Of a stretch of DNA of 64,000 bases, positions 8,161-60,710 are shown piece after piece. The stretch is taken from NCBI GenBank assembly GCA_949299165.1, contig CASFZJ010000005.1, positions 12,974 to 76,973 on the forward strand, given 5' to 3'. The stretch is from an uncultured bacterium. GTDB lineage: Bacteria > Bacillota_I > Bacilli_A > RFN20 > CAG-826. The notes beneath the pieces were generated by a model. That model was not told the DNA's origin and did no database searches. It worked only from the letters and a program-made list of their open reading frames with translations. Positions within the stretch are counted from its first letter, which is position 1. The number at the start of each line of letters is the position of its first letter. Made by a program: the position numbers and the translations under genes.

Positions 8161-8946
8161 TTAAACGTTCTTGTTTTTCAAGTTTTTCCCGATAAAAGGA
8201 ACTTCGAAAAAATCTCTAATATTTGTCCTAATTATATAATCAATATAATTTCCTATAGCTAAAGCATAGATATAATAACCCATTGCGTTAGGATGGAATC
8301 CCATTGCATATTTTTGACGCGCTTTTTCATCGTAAATTGGTCCGTAGTGGGTCATATCAATCAAATAAGTAAACGAAAATAGTTTCACAACCTTTTTCAT
8401 TTCTTCACAAACATAATAGGCTAAGTCGTCTTTTTCTTTAGATGTATGATCTATTTGTAATGAAACGAGAAAAATTCGAGCGTCTTTTTCTAAACTTTTA
8501 AGTTTCGAAAGAACTTTCCCCATATAACCAAAATATGTATCTTTATTTTTCAAAGGATCTTCAACATTAATATCTTCAGCGCTTCCAACTCGCTGATTAA
8601 AAACAAACAAATCATTATTGCCTAAATTAACGATATAAGCTTGTTTCTTTTGCCAAAAATTATTCTTATCGGCCCGCGATTCATAAAACTCTTTAAAGCT
8701 CATACCACCTCGTGAATAATTAGAATATTTACTACCTGTTATCTTTTCTAAAATAGCTGGCCAAGAGTACTCATAAAAATCATGGTATGAAATATTCCCA
8801 TTTTCATCTGTTGATTCGAATTCCCCGCTTGATAAGGAGTCGCCGACAACCCCTATTTCTTTAAAAATGTTAGCAAAACCACAGTTTTCTTTAATATTCT
8901 CGAGTGGTTTTTCGTTATTTTTTGTTTCAAAAAATGAAATATCCAT
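8161..8946 (-). CDS. SGNH/GDSL hydrolase (esterase)
   Basis: Blocks VVGDSLSSGE, LGNND and GFHPN. TAATG overlap with the upstream MFS gene. Confidence 0.8.
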   Translation of the reverse strand: MDISFFETKNNEKPLENIKENCGFANIFKEIGVVGDSLSSGEFESTDENGNISYHDFYEYSWPAILEKITGSKYSNYSRGGMSFKEFYESRADKNNFWQKKQAYIVNLGNNDLFVFNQRVGSAEDINVEDPLKNKDTYFGYMGKVLSKLKSLEKDARIFLVSLQIDHTSKEKDDLAYYVCEEMKKVVKLFSFTYLIDMTHYGPIYDEKARQKYAMGFHPNAMGYYIYALAIGNYIDYIIRTNIRDFFEVPFIGKNLKNKNV

Positions 8947-10370
8947 TATTTATTTTCCCCTTTCTTTTTATCCCATTCTAATCCGGTAACTTTAGTTAAA
9001 TCTAATCCTTTAGTTTCTCCTACACATTTAAACATGACAATAACCGCTCCAACTAAGCCAGGTATTGTCAAACACAAATAGAAATATCCAAATGCAGATT
9101 CAGGTATAAGTGGAACAACAATCATCGAAATAATAGAAGCCACGCCACCAATTACTCCATTAAGTAAAGTATTAATAACAGTTATCGAAGATCTAAGATT
9201 CGTTGGTGATGACTCAGAAAACATGATAGATCCAATCGTATCACCAGCTCCCCAATAGCATCCCATAAATCCTCCAATAGCAAAACCAGTAAGAAATGGC
9301 GTCCAAGAAAGCATTGAAGAAGCAATAAATAAGCTATAGCAAACCAAAGATGCACTACCCATTGCTATAATTGTTGTTTTTCTACCAAATTTATCAGAAA
9401 CAAAACCACTTACAAAAGTAGCTAGCGCGTTACCTACAGGATAAAGATATAGTGCATATGTTATTTCTTGTTCACTCATCTCTGCTGATTCAGCCATAAC
9501 CGTGTTATAAGTCGAGGTTGCTAAAGAAGCAAAATAAAAGAAAACGCAAGCAATTATTAACCATCTTAATTGATGATGCTTAAAAGCAAATTTTACACCA
9601 TTAATAATTCCGCCTTGGGCATTATTCAATTTTTCTTCTTTACTTTCTTTTTCTCTAACTTCATATGGAGTTTTTAAATATTTAATTCTGTTTGTTAAAA
9701 ATGTATGCGTTTCTTTAGCACAAACAAGAGCTACAAACGATAATATAAAACCAATAATTGCTGGAACTAAATATACTAAATGCCATCTGGAACTGATGTT
9801 TTGCATTAAAGTTTCTCTTAATAAAGGAATAAGGAGAGTTCCTAAAATGGCAATTGATTTAACTATTGAATAATTTCTTGCTCGGCTTTTTTCATCGCTA
9901 CATTCCAAAATATAAACAGCTTGCATGTCGTGAGAAACCATAAATCCCATTAAGGTTCCGCCTATCATATAAACAACAATTTCTCTAGAAAGATAAACTA
10001 TAAATAGGCCAAGTGCCATACAAAAAGTATTAATTATAAGGAAAGGTTTTCTTCCAAATCGGTCTGCTAAAGGCCTATAAATTACCATCAATAAAGAAAT
10101 AGGATAAGTAATAAAACCTAAAGCCGAAAATATTGAAAGCCCCTCTCCATAACTTAGTCCCATATTATCAACGAAAAACTCATTGACAATATTTGATTGA
10201 AATTGAATCGAAATTGTAGAAGCTATTTCATCAGTAATAAAAACAAGCGACAATATCATAAAAAGATAAATCAAATAAAACTTATTTTCTTTAAATTGAA
10301 ATTGCTTTTCTCTTCTTTTCAATTCTTTTGCTTCTCGTATTTTAATCTTTTCTATTTTTGACGTTTCCAT
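8946..10370 (-). CDS. MFS transporter
   Basis: About 12 TM segments and a DRFGRKP loop motif. Start moved to the ATG at 10370 (GGAGGAAG RBS 6 nt upstream) from the track start at 10397. Confidence 0.8.
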   Translation of the reverse strand: METSKIEKIKIREAKELKRREKQFQFKENKFYLIYLFMILSLVFITDEIASTISIQFQSNIVNEFFVDNMGLSYGEGLSIFSALGFITYPISLLMVIYRPLADRFGRKPFLIINTFCMALGLFIVYLSREIVVYMIGGTLMGFMVSHDMQAVYILECSDEKSRARNYSIVKSIAILGTLLIPLLRETLMQNISSRWHLVYLVPAIIGFILSFVALVCAKETHTFLTNRIKYLKTPYEVREKESKEEKLNNAQGGIINGVKFAFKHHQLRWLIIACVFFYFASLATSTYNTVMAESAEMSEQEITYALYLYPVGNALATFVSGFVSDKFGRKTTIIAMGSASLVCYSLFIASSMLSWTPFLTGFAIGGFMGCYWGAGDTIGSIMFSESSPTNLRSSITVINTLLNGVIGGVASIISMIVVPLIPESAFGYFYLCLTIPGLVGAVIVMFKCVGETKGLDLTKVTGLEWDKKKGENK

Positions 10371-48398: not shown

Positions 48399-49356
48399 TT
48401 ACTTAAAAACATATCAAGAAATTCCATATAAAGTTTTTGAAAATGCTTTTAAGCATCATAAAATTTTTCATGCCTATCTTTTGGTTGGTGAAAAAGGCAC
48501 ACCACTTTTAAATATTGCAAAATTTTTAGCAGCGAGCATTATCGACCCTGAAAGTTCGCCTTTTGCAAATCAAGATTCTTTAATAACAAAAAGAATTTTT
48601 GATGAAAATTATGTAGATTTGCGAATTTTTGATACAAAAACAAGACAAATTAAAATTAATGAAATTAGAGAATTAGAAACTGCTTTTTCAAAAACTGGCA
48701 CTGAAAAATTTTCAAAAAAAGTTTACATTATTAACTTAGTTGAAAATCTTTCACTCGACGCAACTAATGCTTTACTTAAATTCTTAGAAGAGCCTTTAGA
48801 AGACACATATGCTTTTTTGACGACTGGAAACGATAAAAGAATTCTTCCAACTATTTTAAGTAGAGTCCAAACAGTTCATTTCACTTTGCTTCCTCAATCT
48901 GATTTGATCGAGCAAGCAAAAATGCTTGGAGTTGAAGATAAAAAAGCTGAAATTTTATCTTTTTACTTTAATGACCCAGATTTAATTAAAGAAAACGAAA
49001 ACAATCAAAATTTATTAAAAGTCATAAATCTTGGCGAAAATTTATTGGGATTTGCTGATATGTATTCGTTTCTTTTAAACTTTTTGCTCAATAATGTCTT
49101 TAAATCTATAAAAGACAAAACTGAATATCGCCAATTTTATGATTTATTAATTATATTTTTTAAAGAAGCAATAAAGATTAAATACAAAGAGCAAACAGTC
49201 CTAAAAAAATATGATAAAATACTAAATAAGTTAGTTAATTTAAACGAAATTGAAGATAAGGTTATTCTTTTAATGAATGCTCGTAACGAAATTAATTCAA
49301 ATCTTAATCTTCAATTATTAACTTACTCTACTTTAGAACAAATTTTTGGTAACTAA
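48385..49356 (+). CDS. holB: DNA polymerase III delta' subunit
   Basis: AAA+-like fold with a degenerate P-loop, SRVQ motif, position after tmk. Confidence 0.85.
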   Translation: MDYVNYLKTYQEIPYKVFENAFKHHKIFHAYLLVGEKGTPLLNIAKFLAASIIDPESSPFANQDSLITKRIFDENYVDLRIFDTKTRQIKINEIRELETAFSKTGTEKFSKKVYIINLVENLSLDATNALLKFLEEPLEDTYAFLTTGNDKRILPTILSRVQTVHFTLLPQSDLIEQAKMLGVEDKKAEILSFYFNDPDLIKENENNQNLLKVINLGENLLGFADMYSFLLNFLLNNVFKSIKDKTEYRQFYDLLIIFFKEAIKIKYKEQTVLKKYDKILNKLVNLNEIEDKVILLMNARNEINSNLNLQLLTYSTLEQIFGN

Positions 49357-49357
49357 G

Positions 49358-50218
49358 ATGAATTATTGTATAAGCGTTAAATTTGAAGACACAAGAAAAG
49401 CATATTTTTTTCAAACCGATGACGAAACAATCGATGTTGGCTCTTTTGTTGTTGTTGAAACTGTCGTCGGACTTGAACTCGGTAAAGTTGTCGCACCTAA
49501 AAAAGATCTTTCAACATTTAATTTTGATAAAGAAATTAAACCAATTATTAGAAAAGCGACAAAAAAGGATCTTTTAACCTACAAAAATAACAAAGCTTCA
49601 GCTAAACAAGCCGCTGAAATTTTCGAAAAATATACTAAAGAATTAAATTTAGACATGAAACTTGTCAAAACTGAATACACTTTAGACCACGAAAAAATCT
49701 TATTTACCTATTTCAGTGAAGCCCGTATCGATTTTAGAGAACTTTTAAAACGACTTGCTTCAATTTTGAAATGTAGAATTGAATTAAGACAAATCGTGGC
49801 ACGCGAAAGAGCAATGCTCGTTGGTGGATATGGCGTTTGCGGATTGCCACTTTGCTGCACTTATATGTATTCAAACCAAGAAGGAATTTCTTTAAATAAA
49901 GCAAAAAACCAAATGTTAACTATTAATATTCCTAAATTAAGTGGAGTTTGCGGAAAACTAATGTGCTGCTTAAAATATGAAGATGACTATTACACTGAAG
50001 AAAAGAAACAATTTCCACCAATCAACACTACTTTTAAATACAATGGCATTGAACTAAAGGTAAGCAGTTACAATGTTTTAAATAAAGTAATTAAATGCGT
50101 TGGCGAAGATGTTGTCGAGTTCTTACCACTTGAAGAAGTCAAAAAATATGTAAAACAAAGTGGAAAATTCCCACAAAAGAAACAAATTCCACCAAAACAA
50201 ACAAATAAAAATGGCTAA
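49358..50218 (+). CDS. PSP1-domain protein (YaaT/RicT-like)
   Basis: PSP1 C-terminal domain with Cys cluster GLPLCC..GVCGKLMCCLKYE. ATG at 49358 preferred over the TTG at 49346. Confidence 0.85.
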   Translation: MNYCISVKFEDTRKAYFFQTDDETIDVGSFVVVETVVGLELGKVVAPKKDLSTFNFDKEIKPIIRKATKKDLLTYKNNKASAKQAAEIFEKYTKELNLDMKLVKTEYTLDHEKILFTYFSEARIDFRELLKRLASILKCRIELRQIVARERAMLVGGYGVCGLPLCCTYMYSNQEGISLNKAKNQMLTINIPKLSGVCGKLMCCLKYEDDYYTEEKKQFPPINTTFKYNGIELKVSSYNVLNKVIKCVGEDVVEFLPLEEVKKYVKQSGKFPQKKQIPPKQTNKNG

Positions 50219-51026
50219 TACTCTATATTTAGTTCCTTCACCTATTGGCAATTTGAGTGAGGTTTCGCCTCGAATTAAAGAAATTTTAAATTCTGTTTCT
50301 TTTGTCGCATGCGAAGATACAAGAAATACTCAAAAATTACTGGCACTTTTAAATATTTCTAAGCCATGTATTTCTTGCCACGAACATAACGAAATGTCTG
50401 AAAGCCAAATTATTATAAAAAGAATTTTAAATGGTGAAGATTGTGCATATTTAAGCGATGCTGGTTTCCCTTGTATTAGCGATCCAGGATTTTTGTTAAC
50501 GAAAGAATGTATAAAAAACGATATAAAAATAGTTCCAATAAGCGGACCAAACGCGGCACTTTTAGCTCTTGTTGGGAGTGGATTAGACACCACTCATTTT
50601 ATGTTCTATGGTTTTCTCGACTCAAAAATTTCAAAAAAAGAGTCGGAAATTGCTGGGTTTTTGAATTATAAATACACAATTATACTTTATGAAGCCCCTC
50701 ATAGAATTAACGAAACTTTATCATCTTTATATAAAATTTTAGGCAACCGAAAAATCGTTATCGCTAGAGAATTAACAAAAATGTATGAAGAATTTATTCG
50801 CTCAGATTTAAAAACTTTATGTGAAGAAAAACGCGAATATAAAGGTGAGTTAGTTCTTGTTTTAGAAGGAAAAAAAGAAGAAACTAAAGAAATAGATGAA
50901 GGAATTCTTGAAAAAGCTAAAGCACTTGAAAAAATGGGTTGTTCCAAAAAAGAAATTTCTTCTATTATTTCTTCGCTTTTTAACATCAACAAAAATAAAA
51001 TATATAAAGAATTAATAAAAGATTAG
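50211..51026 (+). CDS. rsmI: 16S rRNA (cytidine1402-2'-O)-methyltransferase
   Basis: MANTLYLVPSPIGNL N-terminus and CEDTR motif. ATG at 50211 preferred over the track start at 50160. Confidence 0.9.
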   Translation: MANTLYLVPSPIGNLSEVSPRIKEILNSVSFVACEDTRNTQKLLALLNISKPCISCHEHNEMSESQIIIKRILNGEDCAYLSDAGFPCISDPGFLLTKECIKNDIKIVPISGPNAALLALVGSGLDTTHFMFYGFLDSKISKKESEIAGFLNYKYTIILYEAPHRINETLSSLYKILGNRKIVIARELTKMYEEFIRSDLKTLCEEKREYKGELVLVLEGKKEETKEIDEGILEKAKALEKMGCSKKEISSIISSLFNINKNKIYKELIKD

Positions 51027-54000
51027 TTTAAATCTTCGATTTCACGATTAAATCCTTTGATGATATCTTCATCAATTTTTAATACTTCTCGATCAAAAGT
51101 ATATAGTCCATTATATTCTTTTTCGCAATCATTTAGTTGAGTATATATGATTCCAAAAAGTTCATTATTTTTAGCTAAATTTATAGCATTTTTGTAAAAA
51201 TTCCCATATTTTTTTGTTAAATCTTCTTTTGAAAAAGCAGGAGATTGAGTAAATTGACCTTTGAATAATGCGTGGTCTTGAAGTTTTAAATTAATTCCAC
51301 CGCATTCGCTTAAAATGTAAGGTTTATTTTCTTTTTTGTCTTTTCTTTTTGATTTTGATAACAAATAAGCATGAATTGAATATAAATCTCTTTTTTTATT
51401 TAAATACCATCCGCTTGTAGTGTCATAAATTTTGAATTTATCATAACTTTTAGCGAGTTCATAAATTTTATCAGGTTCAAATTCGCCCCAACCTTCGTTA
51501 AAAAGTGTGTAGCAAATGACTGAAGGATGGTTGTATAAATTTGAAATTATTTCTTTTAATTCATATAAATACATTTTTTTACTTTTTTCATCTTTCCTGC
51601 CGTTTCCTTTTTCGCTCATAAATTTAGAGTTATTTAAAAAAGGAAAAACGCGAGGTAAAACTACCGAAAAGAAATTATATTTATATCCACCATTTGGAAT
51701 GTCTTGAATAACGAGCATTCCAAGTTTATCACATAAATAATAAAAATAATCCATTTCTACTTTGACATGCATTCTGATTGTGTTAAATCCAAGATTTTTA
51801 ACATTTATAATATCGTTTTCATAATCTTTATAAGATGATGGAGTTAATGAATTTGGATAATAGTATCCTTGGTCTAAAACGCCATTCAAAATTACCTTTT
51901 TATTATTCAAAAACACTGCAGAAACGCCATCTTTTTCTTTAACTTCGATTTTTCTAAAGCCAAAATAACTTTCTACTGCATCTTCTAAATATGTAATTTT
52001 AACATCATATAAATAAGGATTTTTGTATGTCCAAGAAATAGGTTTTTCTAAAACTATAAAATCCTCTTTATTGGTTTTAATTAGATATTCTTTGCCTTCA
52101 ATAATGACTTTTGCTTCTCTAATTTTTCGACTTTTAGTTCTAATAAAAATTCCGACTTTTTTCTCATCATAATATACATTAAATTTTACATATTTAATGT
52201 AATCTAAAGGCACTTCTTCTAACCAAACATTTTTGTAAATTCCACTACTTGAAGAATAATAACAAGTTTGTGGATTTAAGGTTTGTTTGCCTCTTGAAAA
52301 ATATGATGAATCAGTAAAATCTTTTACTTTGACAACAACATTATTTTCTTCTTTTATAAAAGATGTGATATCAACGCTTGCTTTAGTATAACCAGATTCA
52401 TGATAAGTTACAAAATTACCATTTAACAAAAGATCAAAAACTTGGTCAGTTCCGTCAAGATGTAAAATATATCTTTTGTCTTTTGAAAAATTTTCAATTT
52501 TTAGTTTTCTTTCATAAATTAATATATTTTGAGGAGAAATAAGTTTGTTTACTCCGGAAAATGGCGCTTCAACTGAATAAGGCACAAGAACTTTTCCATC
52601 GTAAATTGTTTCGCTTTCTTCAAGAATTTTTAGATTCCACTCTCCGTTTAAGTTAATGAAAGACTTTCTTTTAAGATTTGGGCGAGGATATTCTTCAAAT
52701 GGAACATCGTTTTCTTTTCTTGTAATCTTTTCTTTATTTTGTTCTAAATTTGCAATTAAATGTCCGTTATTAATATCGACTTTTTTTGTATTTTTAAATA
52801 CAAAATATAGTGGAATTAACGTTAATAAAAGGATAATCAATGCGACTAAATAGCCATAATTTGAAGGTAATGGATTATTAACGCCAAATTGATCTTGATA
52901 AATTTCGCCATATGCATTATTTAATGCGCTTCCAATAAAAGGACCAATGCACATTGGTAAAGCAACAACGAAGATCATTCTTATTCCCATGAATATTCCT
53001 TCTTTTCCTTTAGGAATATAGGTTCTAAGTAAGGAATTTAGAATTGCAGGAAAACTTACATAACCTAAAATCATGATGAGTCCACTTATTGCAGTATAAA
53101 GTATTCTTCCAATTTCGTTTTCAATAAATGGACAGAAAAACATCATAAATAAGCCAAGCGCAGTAATAGATAAAGTAGGCAAAAGCATTTTTGTTTTACC
53201 TTTTTTATCTGCTCTAAAACCAATGAAAACGCTCAAAACTGAGCCGACTAGTAAAGCAATTGCCATAACTATTGCAAAAGGAGTTAAAAACGAATCACCT
53301 GTATTTGAGATATTGCAAGTTCTCTCAACATAAATCATTAAGTAAGGAAAATAAACTTGAACTGAGACATTAAAGATAAAATAAGTTATTAAAACTATAT
53401 ATAAAAGTTTGTTTTCTTTAATAACTTTTGGTTTAAAACCTTCAATTAAAAGCGAAAAATATGGCTCTTTTTTCTTTTCTTCATTCTTTTCTTTTGGTAG
53501 TAAAAATATAGAAACAATTCCAACTACAAGGACGATTGCACCTACTATATAAAAGAATAAGTCCCATCTATTTCCGCTTGCATCAGTTGTTAATCCATTA
53601 AGCCCAACAAAAATAATTAGCATTGCTGCAAGAGGGAGAACACCTAAAACTCCTTCAACCTTAGCCCTATTTGCATCGTCAATATTTTTGGTTACATACG
53701 AATTAAATGCAGCATCATTCCCTGTTGAACCAAAAAACGTCATTATACAATCGATAACAATTACTAAAATTGCCGCAGTTACGGCACTCATTTGAATAGG
53801 CACGAGTTCAACAGCACCGGTAACATTTAGTAAACCAAAAGAAGCTGTTGAAACGCCCCACAAAATATAACCGACTGAAATAAATATTTTTCTTTTTCTT
53901 AATTTATCACTTAAACCACCCATAAAAAGCGTAGTAAGTGTCGCAGTTATAGCACTTAAAGCGGTTGTTACTGCAATAAGTGTGTTGTAATCAAATTTTT

Positions 54001-54154
54001 CAGCTTCAGGCGCAGAAAAATTCAAATAAGCAATATAGGTGTTTAAATACATATTCTCAATTGACCAAGCAAATTGTCCCGCAAGGCCAATTAAGATAAT
54101 AATTAACCACATTTCCCAACCAATTTTATTGGTTGATTTCTTCGCTTGTTCCAT
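51023..54154 (-). CDS. fusion protein: 12-TM MFS-type transporter (N) plus GH2 glycoside hydrolase (C)
   Basis: Residues ~20-465 hold 12 hydrophobic segments and a GGLSDKLRKRK loop. Residues ~494-1054 are GH2-like (EYPRPNLKR..LNGEWN sugar-binding domain, LFNEGWGEF acid/base, ILSECGG nucleophile). Single uninterrupted ORF. ATG at 54154 preferred over TTG at 54187. Confidence 0.8.
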   Translation of the reverse strand: MEQAKKSTNKIGWEMWLIIILIGLAGQFAWSIENMYLNTYIAYLNFSAPEAEKFDYNTLIAVTTALSAITATLTTLFMGGLSDKLRKRKIFISVGYILWGVSTASFGLLNVTGAVELVPIQMSAVTAAILVIVIDCIMTFFGSTGNDAAFNSYVTKNIDDANRAKVEGVLGVLPLAAMLIIFVGLNGLTTDASGNRWDLFFYIVGAIVLVVGIVSIFLLPKEKNEEKKKEPYFSLLIEGFKPKVIKENKLLYIVLITYFIFNVSVQVYFPYLMIYVERTCNISNTGDSFLTPFAIVMAIALLVGSVLSVFIGFRADKKGKTKMLLPTLSITALGLFMMFFCPFIENEIGRILYTAISGLIMILGYVSFPAILNSLLRTYIPKGKEGIFMGIRMIFVVALPMCIGPFIGSALNNAYGEIYQDQFGVNNPLPSNYGYLVALIILLLTLIPLYFVFKNTKKVDINNGHLIANLEQNKEKITRKENDVPFEEYPRPNLKRKSFINLNGEWNLKILEESETIYDGKVLVPYSVEAPFSGVNKLISPQNILIYERKLKIENFSKDKRYILHLDGTDQVFDLLLNGNFVTYHESGYTKASVDITSFIKEENNVVVKVKDFTDSSYFSRGKQTLNPQTCYYSSSSGIYKNVWLEEVPLDYIKYVKFNVYYDEKKVGIFIRTKSRKIREAKVIIEGKEYLIKTNKEDFIVLEKPISWTYKNPYLYDVKITYLEDAVESYFGFRKIEVKEKDGVSAVFLNNKKVILNGVLDQGYYYPNSLTPSSYKDYENDIINVKNLGFNTIRMHVKVEMDYFYYLCDKLGMLVIQDIPNGGYKYNFFSVVLPRVFPFLNNSKFMSEKGNGRKDEKSKKMYLYELKEIISNLYNHPSVICYTLFNEGWGEFEPDKIYELAKSYDKFKIYDTTSGWYLNKKRDLYSIHAYLLSKSKRKDKKENKPYILSECGGINLKLQDHALFKGQFTQSPAFSKEDLTKKYGNFYKNAINLAKNNELFGIIYTQLNDCEKEYNGLYTFDREVLKIDEDIIKGFNREIEDLN

Positions 54155-54506
54155 TATTTTCGCTTCTTTCGTTATCTTGTTTTTCAAAAGGTGTTAAACC
54201 AATTACATCACTAACTTTTATTGAAAAAGCAATTCCGCTACCCTTGGTTTCGAGTCCTGCTTGTTTATAAATATTCAACATAACTTTGTCTTTAATTTCT
54301 TCATCAACAAGAATAAAAACAATTTCTTTTTCAGGTTGGATAACGATTCCAAAAAATGTCCCAAGTTCTTTGTTTCCTGTTCCATGAGCAACAAAAGTTG
54401 TGCCGCCTCTTGCTCCGCATTCTTTAGCTGCATCCATTACTACTCCAGTATAACCTTGATTAACGATAACAATTATTAATTCATAATTCTTTTGACTTAC
54501 TTCCAT
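54126..54506 (-). CDS. PII-like signal-transduction protein (short T-loop), copy B
   Basis: beta-alpha-beta-beta-alpha-beta pattern aligns by eye to GlnB (ELIIVIV.., GGTTFVAHGTG, KEIVFILV, GSGIAFSIKV). GGAGAG RBS lies inside the upstream gene. Confidence 0.65.
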   Translation of the reverse strand: MEVSQKNYELIIVIVNQGYTGVVMDAAKECGARGGTTFVAHGTGNKELGTFFGIVIQPEKEIVFILVDEEIKDKVMLNIYKQAGLETKGSGIAFSIKVSDVIGLTPFEKQDNERSENNGTSEEINQ

Positions 54507-54927
54507 CGTTATCTCTCCTTTTACTTTCTCTTACATTAGCTAAATATTTATAAACTAAAACCCCTGCAACTGAATCAATATCCATGCAAAAGCTTATTCC
54601 TTTATATTTTTTATTAAGTGAAAAACGTTCTTCTATAATCTTTTTTAAATTATCTAAGTCGGTAATTTTAACTAATGATAAAACAATGTCTTTCTTGGTT
54701 TCACCAATACCTAAAATATCATAAATTTCTTTAGTGGCTGTCCCTGTTCCATAAATATTAAAAGAAGCGCTCACCCCATTTTTTTCAAAAATTCGAGTAA
54801 AATAATCACCTTGACCACGATCAACAATAATAACCATTACTTTTAGTTTTGTTACTTCAAACTCTTTATCGTAATGTGCGCTTCCTTCTTTTCTTTGCTC
54901 AATTTCTTTTTTCTTCTTAAAAAACAT
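54481..54927 (-). CDS. PII-like signal-transduction protein, copy A (Lys-rich N-terminal extension)
   Basis: LKVMVIIVDRGQGDYFTRIFEKNGVSASFNIYGTGTA..KDIVLSLV..GISFCMDIDSV shows the same fold pattern as copy B. Confidence 0.6.
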   Translation of the reverse strand: MFFKKKKEIEQRKEGSAHYDKEFEVTKLKVMVIIVDRGQGDYFTRIFEKNGVSASFNIYGTGTATKEIYDILGIGETKKDIVLSLVKITDLDNLKKIIEERFSLNKKYKGISFCMDIDSVAGVLVYKYLANVRESKRRDNDGSKSKEL

Positions 54928-54935
54928 AAGACCAC

Positions 54936-56474
54936 CTACATGTGAATGATTTGTGCATCATTAGTTTCACGAACTTGTTTTTGAACAAGTTTATATCTTA
55001 ATTTAAGTTTAATTGTTGATTGCAAACCTAAAGCTTGAATACAAATAACTGGCATCGCACTAATTAAACCAATGACGCCAAAACCACTATTTTCTCCACC
55101 AATTGAAGCAATACCCATAATAAAAGGTAAAACAAAACAAGAAGACATCGTTCCACTTGCAACTCCACCAGAGTCAAATGCAATAGCAGTATAAATATCA
55201 GGTACAGCAAAAGATAAAGAAATACTTAGCAAATAAAGCGGAACATAATAATAAACAATTGAAAAATTGCCATATAACTCGCGAATTACTTCTAAGACGA
55301 TTGCCCCGGCAACGCCAAGACATAAAGTTATTAACATTTTTGTTTTAGAAATTGTTCCACCACTTACTTCTTCCACTTGTTGATTAAGAATGTGAACACC
55401 AGGTTCAACAAGAACAACAGCACAGCCAATTACAATCGCCAAAATAATAAGTAAATAATTATATTGACCGCCAAAGTCGGGATTACCCAAATTGTTTCCT
55501 AAAGAATAGCCAACCGGAATGAGTCCAAATTTAGCAGCAATTAAGAATATAGATAAGCCAAAATAGGTATAAACAAAGCCTAAATCGATTTTCAAAAGCT
55601 CTTTTTTAGGAAGTTTAATAAATATAAATTGATAAACCTGGAAAAATACAAACAAAGGCAAAATAGCTATCAAAACTTCTAAACATGTATGAGATAACAC
55701 TTCTACAAAAGGTGTATCCAAACTAACACTATTTTTTAGCGATGATAAATCGGTTGTCGAATTTACAATAAGTAAAAGAATCATTGTGGTGATTAATGGA
55801 CCAATTGAGCAAATTCCGGTTACACCGAAAGAGTCGCTTGAAGAATTTTTACCACCTCTAACAGATGCAACGCCAGCCCCAAAAGTTAACAAAAATGGAA
55901 CAGTGACAGGTCCTGTTGTAACCCCACCCGAGTCAAAAGCTATAGAAATAATACTTTCTCCGCTTTTTCCGTCGAGCAAACAACCCAAAGCAAAAACAAT
56001 AAAATAGAAAAATATAAGCCAAATTTTTAAATTTTGTTGAAAAATAATCCTTAATAACCCGACGACAAGAAATATTCCAACCCCTACACCAATACAAATT
56101 TTTAGAATCCATGGATTAATAACATCTTGGAGTAAATCGCTTAAAACGGTTAAATCGGGTTCAGCAATTGTGATCATTAATCCTAAGAAAAATGCAATAA
56201 CAACCATAAAAACAATGGCTTGTTTTTGCGTAATATTTGCACCAATATATTGACCAACTTTACTCATCGAAATATCGCTTCCAAAAGAAAATAAGGCCAT
56301 ACCTAAAATAAGGAAAATTAAGCATATTAAAAATATGATTAACATGTGGGTTGAAATTGTTTCTGAAGGCATTAAATCAGAAAACTGCAATCCAAAAATA
56401 ATCACTACAATTAATGCAATAGGTACAACACTTATTGCAGCTTCAACCAACTTTTGTAAAGCTTGCTTAAACAT
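54936..56474 (-). CDS. internally duplicated polytopic membrane protein (DUF1538-like, two fused repeats)
   Basis: Two homologous halves: IAEPDLTVL ... AFDSGGVTTGPVTVPFLLTFGAGVAS and LVEPGVHIL ... AFDSGGVASGTMSSCFVLPFIMGIAS. About 12-14 TM. The family name is from memory. Confidence 0.6.
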   Translation of the reverse strand: MFKQALQKLVEAAISVVPIALIVVIIFGLQFSDLMPSETISTHMLIIFLICLIFLILGMALFSFGSDISMSKVGQYIGANITQKQAIVFMVVIAFFLGLMITIAEPDLTVLSDLLQDVINPWILKICIGVGVGIFLVVGLLRIIFQQNLKIWLIFFYFIVFALGCLLDGKSGESIISIAFDSGGVTTGPVTVPFLLTFGAGVASVRGGKNSSSDSFGVTGICSIGPLITTMILLLIVNSTTDLSSLKNSVSLDTPFVEVLSHTCLEVLIAILPLFVFFQVYQFIFIKLPKKELLKIDLGFVYTYFGLSIFLIAAKFGLIPVGYSLGNNLGNPDFGGQYNYLLIILAIVIGCAVVLVEPGVHILNQQVEEVSGGTISKTKMLITLCLGVAGAIVLEVIRELYGNFSIVYYYVPLYLLSISLSFAVPDIYTAIAFDSGGVASGTMSSCFVLPFIMGIASIGGENSGFGVIGLISAMPVICIQALGLQSTIKLKLRYKLVQKQVRETNDAQIIHM

Positions 56475-56543
56475 GTTTCTATTATAAAATAAAAATCATT
56501 TTTTTAATATATTTTTTGAAATTATTTTTAGATAATTTTTCTT

Positions 56544-56631
56544 AAAAACCTTGCAAAACCCCAATATTTTCAAAATTTCCTGTGAATTTTGAAAAAAGTG
56601 GTACTTTTTTTAAATTTTCTTGGGAAATTTT
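56544..56631. repeat. intergenic array: CCTTGCAAAACCCC word plus three ~20-bp A-run/core/T-run modules
   Basis: Words: aaaaaccttgcaaaaccccaat, caaaatttcctgtgaatttt, gaaaaaagtggtacttttttt, aaattttcttgggaaatttt. Confidence 0.6.
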
Positions 56632-56637
56632 CAAAAT

Positions 56638-57591
56638 TTACTTAGTTTTTTTCATCAAATCATTAAATTCGTTTGGCATTTTTGCCACTAATTTATAAAC
56701 TTTTCCAGTAATTGGATTTTTAATATCGAGTTCGTAAGCATGTAAACAAAGTCTATTTATTGGATTTTCGGGTTCTCCATATTTATCATCACCTAAGATA
56801 AAGTGACCAAGCCCTCCCAGAGTTACTCTAATTTGATTCTTTCTGCCAGTAAAAATTTCTACATTGAGTAATGAATATTTCTCGTTTTCTTTAACAACCT
56901 TATATTGAGTTATGCATCTTTGAGCTTTTTTGTCTTTTGAATTTGTTATGTACATTAAATTCAAAGCGTTCATTCTTAAATAATTTACAATACGTTTCTC
57001 TTTTTCTTCCATGTTTCCTTCAACTATGGCGTAATATCCTCTTTTAGTAACTAAGTCATTCCAATTGTTTTGCAATTCATCTTTTATTTTTTCGTTTTTA
57101 GCAAATATTAAAACGCCACTAGTTTCCTTATCTATTCTATGCACTACAAAAATACGAGAATGTTTATCTTTTGCTTGCATATAGTCCATCACCATTCTAT
57201 AAGCCGTGGACGATTTTTCTTTATCGCTTGCAACACTTAATAATCCATAAGGTTTATTGATTGCAATGATATCCCTATCCTCATAAATAATTGGTAAATC
57301 TTTTCTAGCTTTTTTCCTAATTGGTTTTTTAGAAATTATTAACGAATCACCTTTAGAGAGCATAAAATTGAATTGACTAACAGGCGCTCCATCAATAGCA
57401 ATTAAATGATGCGACAATAAATTTTTCGCATTATTACGCGAAAATTTAAGTTCTTCAATTAAATATGCTAAAAGTTCACACTCTCTTTTTACAGTGTACT
57501 CTTTTATATCTAACTCTTTTTTTGATTGATAATCTTCAATCTTTTTGCCTTTTGATCTGCTTTTTAAATTTTCTTTATAGTTCTTATTCAT
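56638..57591 (-). CDS. RluA-family pseudouridine synthase with S4 domain
   Basis: HRIDKETSGVLIFAK catalytic motif and an N-terminal S4-like region. Confidence 0.85.
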   Translation of the reverse strand: MNKNYKENLKSRSKGKKIEDYQSKKELDIKEYTVKRECELLAYLIEELKFSRNNAKNLLSHHLIAIDGAPVSQFNFMLSKGDSLIISKKPIRKKARKDLPIIYEDRDIIAINKPYGLLSVASDKEKSSTAYRMVMDYMQAKDKHSRIFVVHRIDKETSGVLIFAKNEKIKDELQNNWNDLVTKRGYYAIVEGNMEEKEKRIVNYLRMNALNLMYITNSKDKKAQRCITQYKVVKENEKYSLLNVEIFTGRKNQIRVTLGGLGHFILGDDKYGEPENPINRLCLHAYELDIKNPITGKVYKLVAKMPNEFNDLMKKTK

Positions 57592-59209
57592 CTTCTTTTT
57601 TTAATTTAATTGCTGCTTTGATAAATCCTAAAAATAATGGATGTGGTTTTAGTGGTCTAGATAAGAATTCTGGATGGAATTGACATGCGATAAAAAATGG
57701 ATGTTTTTTTAACTCAATGATTTCACACAAATTAGTTTGTGGATTAATGCCACTAAATACTAAATTTCCATCGCTAAAAATTTCTTTATATTTATTATTG
57801 AATTCGTATCTATGTCTATGGCGTTCTTTAATTAATTCTTGGCCGTAAAGTTCATAAGTTTTTGTGCCTTTTTCAAGTTTACATTCATACTCGCCAAGTC
57901 TCATTGTGCCACCGAGTTTTATACCTTTATATTGATCAGGGAGATAATCGATAATGTTATTTTTACAATTTTCTTCAAATTCAGTTGAATTTGCATCTTC
58001 AAGCTTTAGAACATCCCTTGCGTATTCAATCAAACTAAGTTGCATACCTAAGCAAAGACCTAAATATGGAATATGGTTTTCTCTAGCAAAGCGAATTGCA
58101 CAAATTTTCCCTTCGGTCCCTCTTTTTCCAAATCCACCAGGGACAATAATCCCTTGAACATTACCTAAATATTCTTCAACGTTTTCTGTAGTTAAATTAT
58201 CGCTATTTATCCATTCAATTTCGATTTTTCTATCAGTTGCGTAGCCCGCATATTTCAAAGATTCAACAACCGAAATATAAGCATCATGTAAAGAGACATA
58301 TTTTCCAACTAACGCAACTTTTACAGTTTTCTTTAATCGTTTAATTTTTTCAATTAATTTAATCCAGTCAGCCATATCAGCATTATCTGCACAATTTAAT
58401 TTCATATGATTCACAATTAAATCGTCTAAATGCTGTTTTTGTAAATTTAAAGCAACTTCATAAATAATTGGAACGTCTTTTACAGAGATGACCGCTTCAT
58501 CGCTTAAATTGCAGAACAACGCAACTTTCCTTTTAGATTCAATATCAATATTAGTTTCACATCTTAAAAGCAATGCATCAGGTTGAATTCCTAAACCAGT
58601 TAATTCTTTGACACTATGTTGAGTTGGCTTAGTCTTGATTTCACCAGTAGTTTTTAAATAAGGAACCAAGGTGTTATGAACAAAAAATGTATTTTCGTAT
58701 CCAAGTTCTCTTCTTAATTGTCTAATCGCTTCCAAAAATGGTTGAGATTCAATGTCGCCAACCGTTCCTCCGATTTCAACAATACAAACATCAGTATCAC
58801 TTTTTGCATTGAAAGCTTCATATAATCTATTTTTAATTTCGTTAGTGATGTGAGGAATAATTTGAATTGTAGCGCCTAAAAAAGCTCCTTTTCTCTCTTT
58901 TTCTAAAACAGTGCTATAAACTTTTCCGCTTGTAACACTACTTTCTTTGGTCAAAGAAGTATTAATTATTCTTTCATAATGGCCCAAATCAAGATCTGTT
59001 TCAGCACCATCTTTTGTGACAAAAACTTCACCGTGTTGATAAGGTGACATCGTACCTGGATCAATATTTAAATATGGGTCTAATTTCATTGAAAAAATAT
59101 TTAGCCCTCTTCTTTTTAATAGTCTTCCAATACATGCGGCACTTATACCTTTACCTAAACTAGAAACAACGCCACCTGTAACAAAGATAAATTTCATTTG
59201 CTTATCCAT
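57584..59209 (-). CDS. pyrG: CTP synthase
   Basis: KFIFVTGGVVSSLGKG and the GATase GLCLGMQ motif. Start set to the ATG at 59209 (GAGGGTGA RBS). The track start at 59221 is TTG. Confidence 0.95.
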   Translation of the reverse strand: MDKQMKFIFVTGGVVSSLGKGISAACIGRLLKRRGLNIFSMKLDPYLNIDPGTMSPYQHGEVFVTKDGAETDLDLGHYERIINTSLTKESSVTSGKVYSTVLEKERKGAFLGATIQIIPHITNEIKNRLYEAFNAKSDTDVCIVEIGGTVGDIESQPFLEAIRQLRRELGYENTFFVHNTLVPYLKTTGEIKTKPTQHSVKELTGLGIQPDALLLRCETNIDIESKRKVALFCNLSDEAVISVKDVPIIYEVALNLQKQHLDDLIVNHMKLNCADNADMADWIKLIEKIKRLKKTVKVALVGKYVSLHDAYISVVESLKYAGYATDRKIEIEWINSDNLTTENVEEYLGNVQGIIVPGGFGKRGTEGKICAIRFARENHIPYLGLCLGMQLSLIEYARDVLKLEDANSTEFEENCKNNIIDYLPDQYKGIKLGGTMRLGEYECKLEKGTKTYELYGQELIKERHRHRYEFNNKYKEIFSDGNLVFSGINPQTNLCEIIELKKHPFFIACQFHPEFLSRPLKPHPLFLGFIKAAIKLKKEDE

Positions 59210-59302
59210 AATCACCCTCAACTAAAAATTAAAATATATAAAAAAGGTCGCCCTTAATATTTTATTGATATTTATTTAATTAATCTACAATAAATGCAAT
59301 AA

Positions 59303-59403
59303 ATAAAAAGTAGTATTTTTAGCAAAATTTCCTAGGAATTTTGTTGAAAAGTACTACTTTTTTAAATATTTCTAGTATTTTTTACAAAAATATATACTTT
59401 TTT
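59303..59403. repeat. five tandem ~20-bp A-run/core/T-run modules
   Basis: Modules: ataaaaagtagtattttt, agcaaaatttcctaggaatttt, gttgaaaagtactactttttt, aaatatttctagtatttttt, acaaaaatatatacttttttt. Confidence 0.6.
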
Positions 59404-59405
59404 AC

Positions 59406-60374
59406 TTATTTACTTAAATAATCCATTGCAAGGCAGGCACAACCAATGATTCCTGCATCGTTTTTAAGTGAAGCGGTTTTAATTTCGACTTTTGGTGTGT
59501 GACTATATCCATAATGTGCTTTTTCACAATATGCTATGATTTTGTCAATTAAATAGTCACCTTGATTAGAAATTCCACCACCAATTAAAATGATTTGAGG
59601 TCTGAAAATATTACAGAAATTTAAAATACCTTCACTTAAATATTTTACATAAGTATCAATAACTTTAATTGCGGTTTCATCACCTTTTTTGGCGCATTCA
59701 AAACTCGTAAGTCCACTGACATTTTCTAAGTTGTGTGAACAATAATCCCACATGATAGAGTTTTTATTATTGATCATTTCTTTCTTTGTTAATTCAAGTA
59801 ACGCGCTTGCGCTAGCATAGGTTTCAAAACAACCTCTTCTGCCACATCCACATTCATGTCCATCAACAACAATTACAGAATGTCCAAGTTCGGTACCTTT
59901 TCCATCGATTCCTTCAAAAAGTTTATTATCAATAACAACTCCTCCACCGATTCCTGTGCCTAAGGTTAATAAGACAGCATCTTTATATCCTTTAGCTGCA
60001 CCAAATCTAACTTCAGCAAGAGCAGCAACATTTGCATCATTTGATAAAAAGACAGGTAATTCTAAATCTTTTAAATAATCCTTTAATGGAACATCTTCAA
60101 CGTGTAAGTTACATGCATATGCAATTTCTCCTTTTGTTGTATTAACAACTCCAGGAATTCCAAAAGCAATAGCTAATGGTTTTAAGTCATGACTCTTAGC
60201 ATAATCAATCATTTCGACCATTAATTCTTTAGTATCTTTAAGTAAAGCTTCAGCTCCGCCACTAACACTATTAGTCTTTTTGCTATTTTTATAAATTATT
60301 TCGCCGTTTTCAGTGACTAATCCAGCCTTAATCGACATACCACCAACGTCAACACCAATATATACATTTTCCAT
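59406..60374 (-). CDS. glk: ROK-family glucokinase
   Basis: GVDVGGMSIKAG, and the ROK zinc motif HECGCGRRGCFE. ATG at 60374, behind a GGAG RBS. Confidence 0.85.
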   Translation of the reverse strand: MENVYIGVDVGGMSIKAGLVTENGEIIYKNSKKTNSVSGGAEALLKDTKELMVEMIDYAKSHDLKPLAIAFGIPGVVNTTKGEIAYACNLHVEDVPLKDYLKDLELPVFLSNDANVAALAEVRFGAAKGYKDAVLLTLGTGIGGGVVIDNKLFEGIDGKGTELGHSVIVVDGHECGCGRRGCFETYASASALLELTKKEMINNKNSIMWDYCSHNLENVSGLTSFECAKKGDETAIKVIDTYVKYLSEGILNFCNIFRPQIILIGGGISNQGDYLIDKIIAYCEKAHYGYSHTPKVEIKTASLKNDAGIIGCACLAMDYLSK

Positions 60375-60710
60375 AGAAAAATATCTCCTTAAAATTATTT
60401 TACAAACTGAGTTTTCTAATTTCAAAAACTTGTTATAAATTTTGTGAAAAAAACAGCACAGAAATCGGTAAACAAATAGGTAAACAATAGTTTAATAAAA
60501 AGAAACAAACAGTCATAAGTTTGTACATATGTAATTTTTTTGAATTACTTATGTTGTTTTCATTATCTTTTTTCATTAAAAATTTTTAAATTTAAGTTAG
60601 GTTTTGCGCTGTTTTTCTTATTTATATACCAAATTAAACCAAATTAAACAATATTAAATTTTTGTTTTTCAAAAATTTATGCTATTAATATTTTAAATTA
60701 GGGGAAAATT

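Follow-up and report, generated by a model that had tools for sequence, protein, structure and literature searches.

A DUF1538/UmpAB-family transporter with a dedicated pair of PII-fold proteins: a widely conserved three-gene module and a probable PII-gated transporter

Although PII proteins rank with the most widespread of all signalling proteins, few of their transporter targets are mechanistically understood, chiefly AmtB, SbtA and NrtABCD. Does a locus of an uncultured bacterium of the Bacilli_A, in which two small PII-like genes follow a gene for a duplicated membrane protein, represent a new and testable case? We analysed a stretch of 64,000 nucleotides (nt) of contig CASFZJ010000005.1 (hereafter the window), whose minus strand carries four consecutive open reading frames (ORFs) that, according to the ORF list and a reading of the DNA, have no real intergenic gap between them. 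These encode a 512-amino-acid (aa) membrane protein with two DUF1538 domains (54936-56474, from the ORF and Pfam), two small proteins designated PII-A (148 aa, 54481-54927, from the ORF, profile comparison and predicted fold) and PII-B (126 aa, 54126-54506, from the ORF and Pfam P-II), and a fusion of a major facilitator superfamily (MFS) transporter with a glycoside hydrolase of family 2 (GH2). A first-pass annotation had proposed a ligand-gated transport system linked to a sugar importer/hydrolase. It therefore has to be asked which of these genes belong together, how the small proteins could act on a transporter, and what that transporter could carry. We propose, with moderate confidence, that the first three genes are an autonomous and widely conserved operon, in which a DUF1538/UmpAB-family transporter is gated by a dedicated PII pair. 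This would probably be a transporter of the cation/proton type with a likely heteromeric PII pair. Exchange of monovalent cations for protons, taken on its own, is a more tentative proposal, to which we give somewhat less than an even chance. All features below lie on the minus strand unless stated otherwise.

The transporter gene is linked to PII genes across phyla

Two censuses bear on which genes belong together. In the first, one genome per GTDB species was scanned, with hidden Markov models used for the PII-A and PII-B families, and 80 loci were recovered, mostly from uncultured gut Clostridia and Bacilli. A DUF1538 gene, an A-type PII gene and a B-type PII gene directly adjoin one another, in that order, at 77 of these 80 species loci. 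Two of the three exceptions are at contig ends, and at the third (L024) the A gene was undetected although there is space for it. The same trio occurs in Fibrobacter and in a metagenome-assembled genome (MAG) of Clostridiales. In annotated plasmid or chromid records of Methylocystis and Chelativorans, a split DUF1538 pair is followed by one gene annotated as a "P-II family nitrogen regulator", and in an annotated record of Peptoclostridium a fused DUF1538 gene is followed by a gene for a 222-aa tandem PII protein.

The second census comprised 80 metagenome loci from a scan seeded with the split type, with PII domains detected independently of reading frame. All loci with room downstream have PII domains directly after DUF1538. 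One B-type PII, located 2-40 nt after the second DUF1538 gene, was found in each of the split loci with enough downstream sequence (19/19), and the complete fused loci invariably carry an A domain and then a B domain (51/51), mostly within a single gene of 215-240 aa. The fused DUF1538 form of about 510 aa is represented by at least 7,993 clusters at 90% identity. Transporter and regulator architectures co-vary, the split transporter occurring with one B-type PII and the fused transporter with A and B, either separate or in tandem. The link between the transporter and PII genes is essentially obligatory across phyla and amounts to a strict genomic rule, in that PII follows DUF1538, with one PII after the split form and A plus B after the fused form. 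This near-obligatory linkage strongly supports a dedicated regulator-transporter system like GlnK-AmtB and SbtB-SbtA, as the first-pass annotation had suggested by analogy.

Fusions between the two PII types are also frequent. A library-wide search with the PII-A profile returned 1,571 representatives, and about a third of the best 150 PII-A relatives are tandem A-B proteins, as are P0140 and P0141. The frequency of these fusions is Rosetta-stone evidence for a joint action of A and B within a single complex. At the complete split loci among L089-L091 and L092-L171, the single PII scores about 82-104 bits on the B model vs 18-38 bits on the A model, which suggests that the B type is ancestral and the A type a derived duplicate. 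Three long proteins (P0050, P0087 and P0113, 603-628 aa) were considered as transporter-PII fusions and set aside, as they only have N-terminal extensions. A fourth (P0271, 654 aa) contains both DUF1538 domains, runs past the usual ...QVIHF C-terminus and continues into a complete PII-A domain. It was not accepted as a true fusion, as the junction resembles stop-codon loss or read-through with a translated spacer, and we treat it as weak evidence.

Beyond the PII genes, the surroundings of the module display no functional theme. The commonest neighbours at 78 loci encode generic ABC ATPases (15 loci) and aldose epimerases (11 loci); aminotransferase, Na:alanine symporter, MatE, IspDF and Mur ligase genes are also frequent. 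In 63 of the 78 loci there is no co-directional gene within 60 nt downstream of the module, and nif genes were found neither in the neighbourhood in the window nor at the surveyed loci. Given that the module is common in small-genome uncultured gut Clostridia and Bacilli, it probably has a core role in ion or pH homeostasis.

The linkage data also bear on another reading, in which the membrane protein would be mainly a sensor or anchor. An ion or solute would prompt it to recruit the PII pair to the membrane, and control of other cytoplasmic targets would then fall to the PII proteins. A precedent for such a transceptor exists, since AmtB-bound GlnK controls DraG. It is established that PII proteins typically have several targets (bioRxiv 10.1101/2023.08.10.552651, 10.1101/2025.09.09.675011), and further partners could be contacted through a C-terminal helix and an N-terminal tail that only PII-A has. 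However, there is no second conserved neighbour gene, and the genes are linked strictly one to one in operons and co-vary in architecture, which argues for a closed two-party system. In addition, UmpAB, the characterized DUF1538 pair described below, transports ions by itself. We consider the transceptor improbable, and return to a transporter that is itself the target of its PII pair.

The membrane protein is a predicted carrier with two inverted repeats

The 512-aa protein matches Pfam PF07556 (DUF1538) in two stretches with 352.9 bits, against a gathering score of 22.6 (E=6e-106). Its two halves are 27% identical in a pairwise alignment (E=3e-15), which bears out the tandem duplication noticed on first reading. 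Repeat 1 (aa 1-245, 55740-56474) is the UmpA-like half, with the best stretch for NCBIfam UmpA at aa 8-233. Repeat 2 (aa 256-512, 54939-55709) is the UmpB-like half, with the best stretch for NCBIfam UmpB at aa 263-480; it ends in a Lys/Arg-rich cytoplasmic C-terminal tail and is 33% identical to an UmpB-like protein of Methylocystis. The NCBIfam equivalogs for UmpA and UmpB (NF041627 and NF041628) give 125.3 and 131.7 bits, and their cutoffs of 490 and 500 are not reached.

Both halves carry two signature motifs, as had been reported for this protein, although the first of these consists of (A/V)EP, three residues (not two) and (V/I)L. In repeat 1 the motifs are AEPD (aa 104-107, 56154-56165), with A104, E105 and P106 invariant, and FDSGGVTTG (aa 180-188, 55911-55937), with D181 invariant. 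In repeat 2 they are VEPG (aa 356-359, 55398-55409), with E357 and P358 invariant and also present in split alphaproteobacterial homologues, and FDSGGVASG (aa 433-441, 55152-55178), with D434 invariant. The second-half pair of E357 and D434 is kept in those split homologues. An AlphaFold2 model built from 68 homologues has a predicted local distance difference test score (pLDDT) of 85.4 and a predicted template-modelling score (pTM) of 0.85, and its helices are interrupted exactly at the four motifs. When positive charges were counted across the 68 sequences on a model with 14 transmembrane helices and both termini inside, cytoplasmic loops had 15.8 Lys plus Arg residues vs 1.9 outside. With this topology, the two repeats of seven transmembrane helices are inverted relative to each other. 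The protein is therefore predicted to be a secondary transporter of the alternating-access type, built from two inverted repeats. In the model, the four invariant carboxylates (E105, D181, E357 and D434) sit at the helix breaks, and this predicted arrangement is the architecture of an ion-coupled alternating-access carrier.

A sequence search of the PDB found no solved relative of the DUF1538 protein, and a Foldseek search with the model returned nothing at E<=0.001, the best template-modelling (TM) scores being about 0.15-0.2. MATE, Na+-PPase, CLC and SbtA were examined as fold relatives and rejected, all with TM scores <=0.2 (0.14-0.18 for SbtA 7egl_A). Homology of the transporter to Amt or SbtA was likewise not found, as Pfam gives DUF1538 only and the fold is unrelated to that of SbtA.

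Information on the substrate comes from UmpAB of Halomonas zhaodongensis, a split DUF1538 pair for which Na+(Li+,K+)/H+ antiport was reported in 2017 on the basis of complementation of E. coli KNabc and everted-vesicle assays (PMC5484666). The remark in the first-pass annotation that no substrate of DUF1538-type proteins had been established is outdated in this respect, and it retains some force for the window protein, which by the equivalog scores is only a distant relative of UmpAB. A machine-learning study that lists DUF1538 among cation-transport features of pH adaptation (PMC13255231) provides weak correlative support for a cation substrate.

The same architecture could alternatively carry a carbon or nitrogen solute or an anion, such as bicarbonate, ammonium, an organic acid or a polyamine, in which case the Na+/H+ antiport of UmpAB would be a side activity or specific to its subfamily. 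All well-studied PII-transporter pairs, AmtB and SbtA, carry nitrogen or carbon nutrients, as do the PII-regulated nitrate transporter NrtABCD and the PotN system. The window protein obtains only ~130 bits where the UmpA and UmpB cutoffs are ~500, and in the model the glycine-rich unwound FDSGG segments could accommodate either an anion or a cation. On the other hand, the sole experimental datum for the family is cation/proton antiport, which the four invariant membrane carboxylates fit. The surveyed loci show no neighbourhood link to carbon- or nitrogen-assimilation genes, and Foldseek separates the fold from that of SbtA. A substrate of this other kind appears unlikely to us, and exchange of monovalent cations for protons remains our preferred, if tentative, assignment.

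PII-A and PII-B are divergent members of the PII fold

The first-pass annotation had described the two small proteins as paralogous and PII-like, and both statements hold. PII-B passes the Pfam P-II model (PF00543) with 31.4 bits against a cutoff of 25. At E<=1, its family profile matches 36 PDB structures of PII proteins, the best of which is the NifI-type chain 9p1x_H (E=8.9e-7), followed by GlnB and GlnK. This chain, of 105 aa and with a short T-loop, is the NifI chain of a methanogen nitrogenase-PII supercomplex. The motifs of PII-B are GARGGT (aa 31-36), HGTGN (aa 41-45), QPEKE (aa 57-61) and GSGIAF (aa 89-94), followed by an acidic C-terminal tail. They are well conserved in the family, with GA.GGT present in 115/120 relatives, PEKE in 115/120 and G.G[IV][AIV]F in 110/120, and the invariant PEKE lysine corresponds in the alignment to K58 of canonical PII. 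The glycine-rich loops and this lysine suggest that a binding pocket is retained.

PII-A has neither a Pfam match nor a sequence match in the PDB. It is 23% identical to PII-B in a pairwise alignment (E=7e-7), and the two family profiles align in hhalign with a probability of 98.6% (E=7.6e-16). The AlphaFold2 model of PII-A (pLDDT 69.5) contains a double beta-alpha-beta core (b-a-b-b-a-b), and its best 50 Foldseek matches are all PII or PII-like with a probability of 1.00, 18 of them at E<=0.001. PstA is the top match, and GlnK1, SbtB, PotN and CPII are also included. By profile comparison and predicted fold, PII-A is a divergent PII paralogue. It has several features of its own, namely a disordered Lys-rich N-terminus (aa 1-24), an invariant GTGTA motif (aa 60-64) where in the model a short helix occupies the position of the T-loop, and an additional conserved helix at the C-terminus (aa 120-140) that includes YKYL. 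Short T-loops had been proposed for both proteins. The T-loop of PII-B is indeed shorter than that of GlnB, although only by about six residues (13 vs 19 by a proxy count; 15 in NifI1).

We compared both families with the canonical B-loop pattern G[DY]G[KR][IV][FW] and the T-loop Tyr51 motif Y[KR]G[AS][AE]Y. Both patterns are of the PROSITE type. Neither was matched by any of 120 PII-B relatives or any of 20 PII-A relatives, and two canonical control fragments do match the B-loop pattern. From these sequences, PII-B is a distinct P-II subfamily that lies outside the canonical GlnB/GlnK subfamily.

Loss of the canonical ligand-site residues, together with the nearly complete co-occurrence with the transporter, could be taken to mean that the transporter requires the PII-fold proteins as structural subunits, for its assembly or stability, and that they are not ligand-responsive regulators. 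Two observations count against this. The antiport activity of UmpAB in E. coli was obtained from a clone with only the two membrane genes and no PII gene (PMC5484666), and the conserved loops and K58-aligned lysine of PII-B suggest a retained pocket. We consider a purely structural role very improbable. Given that UmpAB worked without a PII gene, we regard a regulatory role of the PII proteins as likelier than a structural one.

The MFS-GH2 gene is a recent, lineage-specific neighbour

The fourth gene (1054 aa from the longest start, 51023-54187) is a fusion with Pfam MFS_1 and GH2 N, central and C domains. A conserved start at ATG 54154 (51023-54154) emerges when the locus is compared with its two closest relatives. 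This start falls within the 3' end of PII-B, with an overlap of 29 nt, and MFS-GH2 is probably co-transcribed with the module. A full-length MFS-GH2 gene after the module was found in only two of the 80 species loci, L006 (8264-11470) and L007 (8289-11468), and these are the two closest relatives (84% and 82% identity). In both, as in the window, rsmI follows MFS-GH2. In more distant loci with the same synteny (L001, L011 and L012), PII-B is immediately followed by rsmI, on the opposite strand. The position of rsmI and the restriction to the two closest relatives indicate that MFS-GH2 is a recent, lineage-specific insertion of a single gene. It lies outside the conserved module, and the linkage to a sugar gene that the first-pass annotation had emphasized cannot be upheld as a feature of the system. 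The window copy of the module is an ordinary member, and the inserted MFS-GH2 gene is its only local peculiarity.

The MFS-GH2 chain is itself unusual. It joins MFS_1 with GH2 N, central and TIM-barrel domains, and the full fusion occurs only in the window, L006 and L007. At the same position in L051 (Candidatus Onthovivens), there is a GH2-only gene of 584 aa (8431-10185), which suggests either that the fusion is recent or that the MFS part was lost; a GH2 gene in L037 is unrelated. In Fibrobacter sp. UBA4309 (L086, 5378-8290), a 970-aa protein with a weak MFS-like membrane region and a spermine/spermidine synthase domain is encoded 2 nt after PII-B. Here, in a phylum unrelated to that of the window, a large membrane-enzyme fusion adjoins the module on its downstream side for a second time.

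Could the module and MFS-GH2 nevertheless cooperate, either through PII gating of the sugar importer/hydrolase or through ion cycling by the DUF1538 protein that energises sugar uptake? In the window, L006 and L007, the reading frames overlap, which implies that the genes are co-transcribed and translationally coupled, and the GH2-only gene of L051 and the MFS-like fusion of Fibrobacter occupy comparable positions. These points are outweighed by the presence of full MFS-GH2 after the module in only 2/80 species, by the syntenic relatives with rsmI directly after PII-B, and by the 63/78 loci that lack a close co-directional downstream gene. We give such cooperation little credence, and take the three-gene module as the functional unit.

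Proposed mechanism

We hypothesize that PII-A and PII-B assemble as one hetero-oligomer, by analogy with NifI1/NifI2, for which the NifI1,2 heterotrimer is the precedent (bioRxiv 10.1101/2025.09.09.675011). The complex would use a non-canonical site to sense a small cytoplasmic ligand, for which an adenine nucleotide or a second messenger that reports energy or ion status is the likeliest candidate. It would then dock on the cytoplasmic face of the transporter and open or plug it, as in the valve-plug model of GlnK-AmtB and SbtB-SbtA (bioRxiv 10.1101/2023.08.10.552651). By homology to UmpAB, the transported species would most likely be a monovalent cation exchanged against protons (Na+/K+/Li+ : H+). 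As this homology is distant, the substrate is the weakest step. MFS-GH2, inserted downstream of PII-B in recent ancestry, would ride on the same transcript and remain outside the mechanism.

Several points weigh against this proposal. With regard to the substrate, the window protein is far under the UmpA and UmpB equivalog cutoffs, and the UmpAB assignment itself comes from one heterologous complementation and everted-vesicle study. The known PII-gated transporters move nitrogen or carbon nutrients and not alkali cations. There is no clue from the genomic context, as no neighbour besides PII is conserved among the 78 loci (the commonest family reaches 15/78) and an Rfam scan of the window region and 12 diverse loci found no riboswitch upstream of the module. 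With regard to the gating, binding of the PII proteins to the transporter or to a ligand is inferred from analogous systems, and the sole transporter::PII-A fusion seen, P0271, is probably a read-through. The basic C-terminal residues of canonical PII are not aligned in these families and the canonical B-loop signature is missing, so that sensing of adenine nucleotides is not assured.

In its broadest form, the proposal is that DUF1538 with PII-A/PII-B represents a third major and widespread class of PII-gated transporter, with an unsolved fold, a second heteromeric PII complex, a non-canonical ligand site, and gating of cation/proton exchange by energy or second-messenger status. We put this at close to an even chance, on the lower side. 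If true, the exchange of cations and protons would, in many gut Firmicutes and also in other bacteria, be gated directly by cellular energy or second-messenger status.

Sequence elements and surroundings of the operon

Within the module, the spacer between the membrane gene and PII-A is 8 nt long, follows the TAG of the membrane gene and contains a GGTGG element that resembles a ribosome-binding site. The ORFs of PII-A and PII-B overlap by 26 nt in the DNA. A Shine-Dalgarno sequence of PII-B, AAGGAGAG (54513-54520), lies 7 nt before the PII-B ATG and within the PII-A coding sequence, a placement that fits translational coupling of PII-B. The layout given by the first-pass annotation, with the 8-nt gap, the 26-nt overlap, the ribosome-binding site of PII-B within PII-A and the overlap of PII-B with MFS-GH2, was thus read again from the DNA in every part.

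An AT-rich intergenic region of 163 nt (56475-56637) separates the membrane gene from an upstream rluD-like gene and is presumed to be the promoter region, its promoter function being inferred from the sequence. A perfect TATAAT (56481-56486) precedes the DUF1538 ATG by 6 nt, and a Shine-Dalgarno sequence is lacking there. This combination could indicate a leaderless mRNA, and in a genome of 30% GC it could also be due to chance. Read on the minus strand, a ATTTTGAAAAT-type motif occurs three times in this intergenic region upstream of the module (56566-56651), as direct and inverted repeats that were not found in the equivalent region of L006 and L007. These repeats could be an operator or merely AT-rich sequence. 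The Rfam scan also detected a glycine riboswitch in L014, which is unlinked to the module, as it lies upstream of it on the opposite strand near a Na:alanine symporter gene.

A perfect 8-bp hairpin, CAACCAAT-AAA-ATTGGTTG (54117-54135), extends across the PII-B stop codon, 17 nt downstream of the MFS-GH2 ATG. Because the coding strand has no T-run after it, a terminator can be ruled out; the hairpin may modulate translational coupling. Its counterpart in L006 is weaker (GCCAA-TAAA-GTTGGC), and L007 has none.

The flanks of the module in the window (49346-51026 and 56638-60425) have synteny in common with the Bacilli MAG L001, with which DUF1538 identity is only 51%. Upstream, the common order comprises ROK kinase, CTP synthase and RluD. 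Downstream, it comprises rsmI and PSP1, both on the opposite strand, and in L001 this flank continues with holB, tmk, recR, ybaB and dnaX. This synteny places the module in a stable housekeeping neighbourhood in the lineage of the window.

Novelty and comparison with known systems

Our search of openly available literature turned up the UmpAB paper and papers that cite it, and no paper linking DUF1538 to PII; matches on Borrelia BB0017 and on random-barcode transposon sequencing (RB-TnSeq) of Methanococcus were unrelated. In its logic the module resembles known PII-transporter pairs. It differs from them in the transporter family and its fold, in the paralogous or tandem PII proteins, and in the ligand site. 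The transporter family has a confident predicted structure and no solved relative, and a PII subfamily minus the canonical nucleotide loop raises the question of which ligand is sensed. A recent paper describes NifI1,2 as the sole heteromeric PII complex that is known (bioRxiv 10.1101/2025.09.09.675011), to which the PII-A/PII-B pair is a possible second. For annotation, our results counsel restraint: not every DUF1538 protein should be named "Na+/H+ antiporter UmpAB", and not every such small protein "nitrogen regulatory protein P-II".

The closest relative of the transporter with experimental data, UmpAB, shares with the window protein the PF07556 family and two homologous halves of about seven transmembrane helices each, the N-terminal half of the window protein matching UmpA and the C-terminal half UmpB. 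The EP and D-SGG motifs are common to the window protein and the split alphaproteobacterial homologues. In contrast to UmpAB, the window halves are fused in one 512-aa chain and score ~130 bits against cutoffs of ~500. A PII gene is not mentioned for UmpAB (PMC5484666), whereas sampled split loci carry one PII and the fused type carries two.

GlnK-AmtB and SbtB-SbtA have in common with the module a small PII-fold gene immediately beside the transporter gene, in a strongly conserved pair, and the predicted fold of PII-A matches those of GlnK1 and SbtB. Unlike Amt and SbtA, the DUF1538 transporter belongs to another family in sequence and fold. The module has two paralogous PII proteins, a shorter T-loop, no canonical B-loop signature and no Tyr51 motif.

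Among other Firmicutes PII-like proteins, PstA (DarA) is the top structural match of PII-A, and PotN is also among the matches. PotN is encoded with a transporter operon. It is a protein of the Firmicute Lentilactobacillus (PDB 7o4x). There is no sequence-level relationship of PII-A to either protein, and the partner transporter is of another type.

NifI1/NifI2, the nitrogenase inhibitor of methanogens (PDB 9p1x), resembles the module in that two paralogous PII genes adjoin each other. When the PII-B profile is compared with PDB sequences, a NifI chain comes out best, and the complex is a precedent for a heteromeric, asymmetric PII assembly. The systems differ in that NifI keeps the canonical GDG[KR]IF loop, which PII-A and PII-B do not, and in that tandem A-B fusions imply a 1:1 ratio where NifI1:NifI2 is 2:1. 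The target of the PII-A/PII-B pair would be a membrane transporter and not nitrogenase, and no nif genes are nearby.

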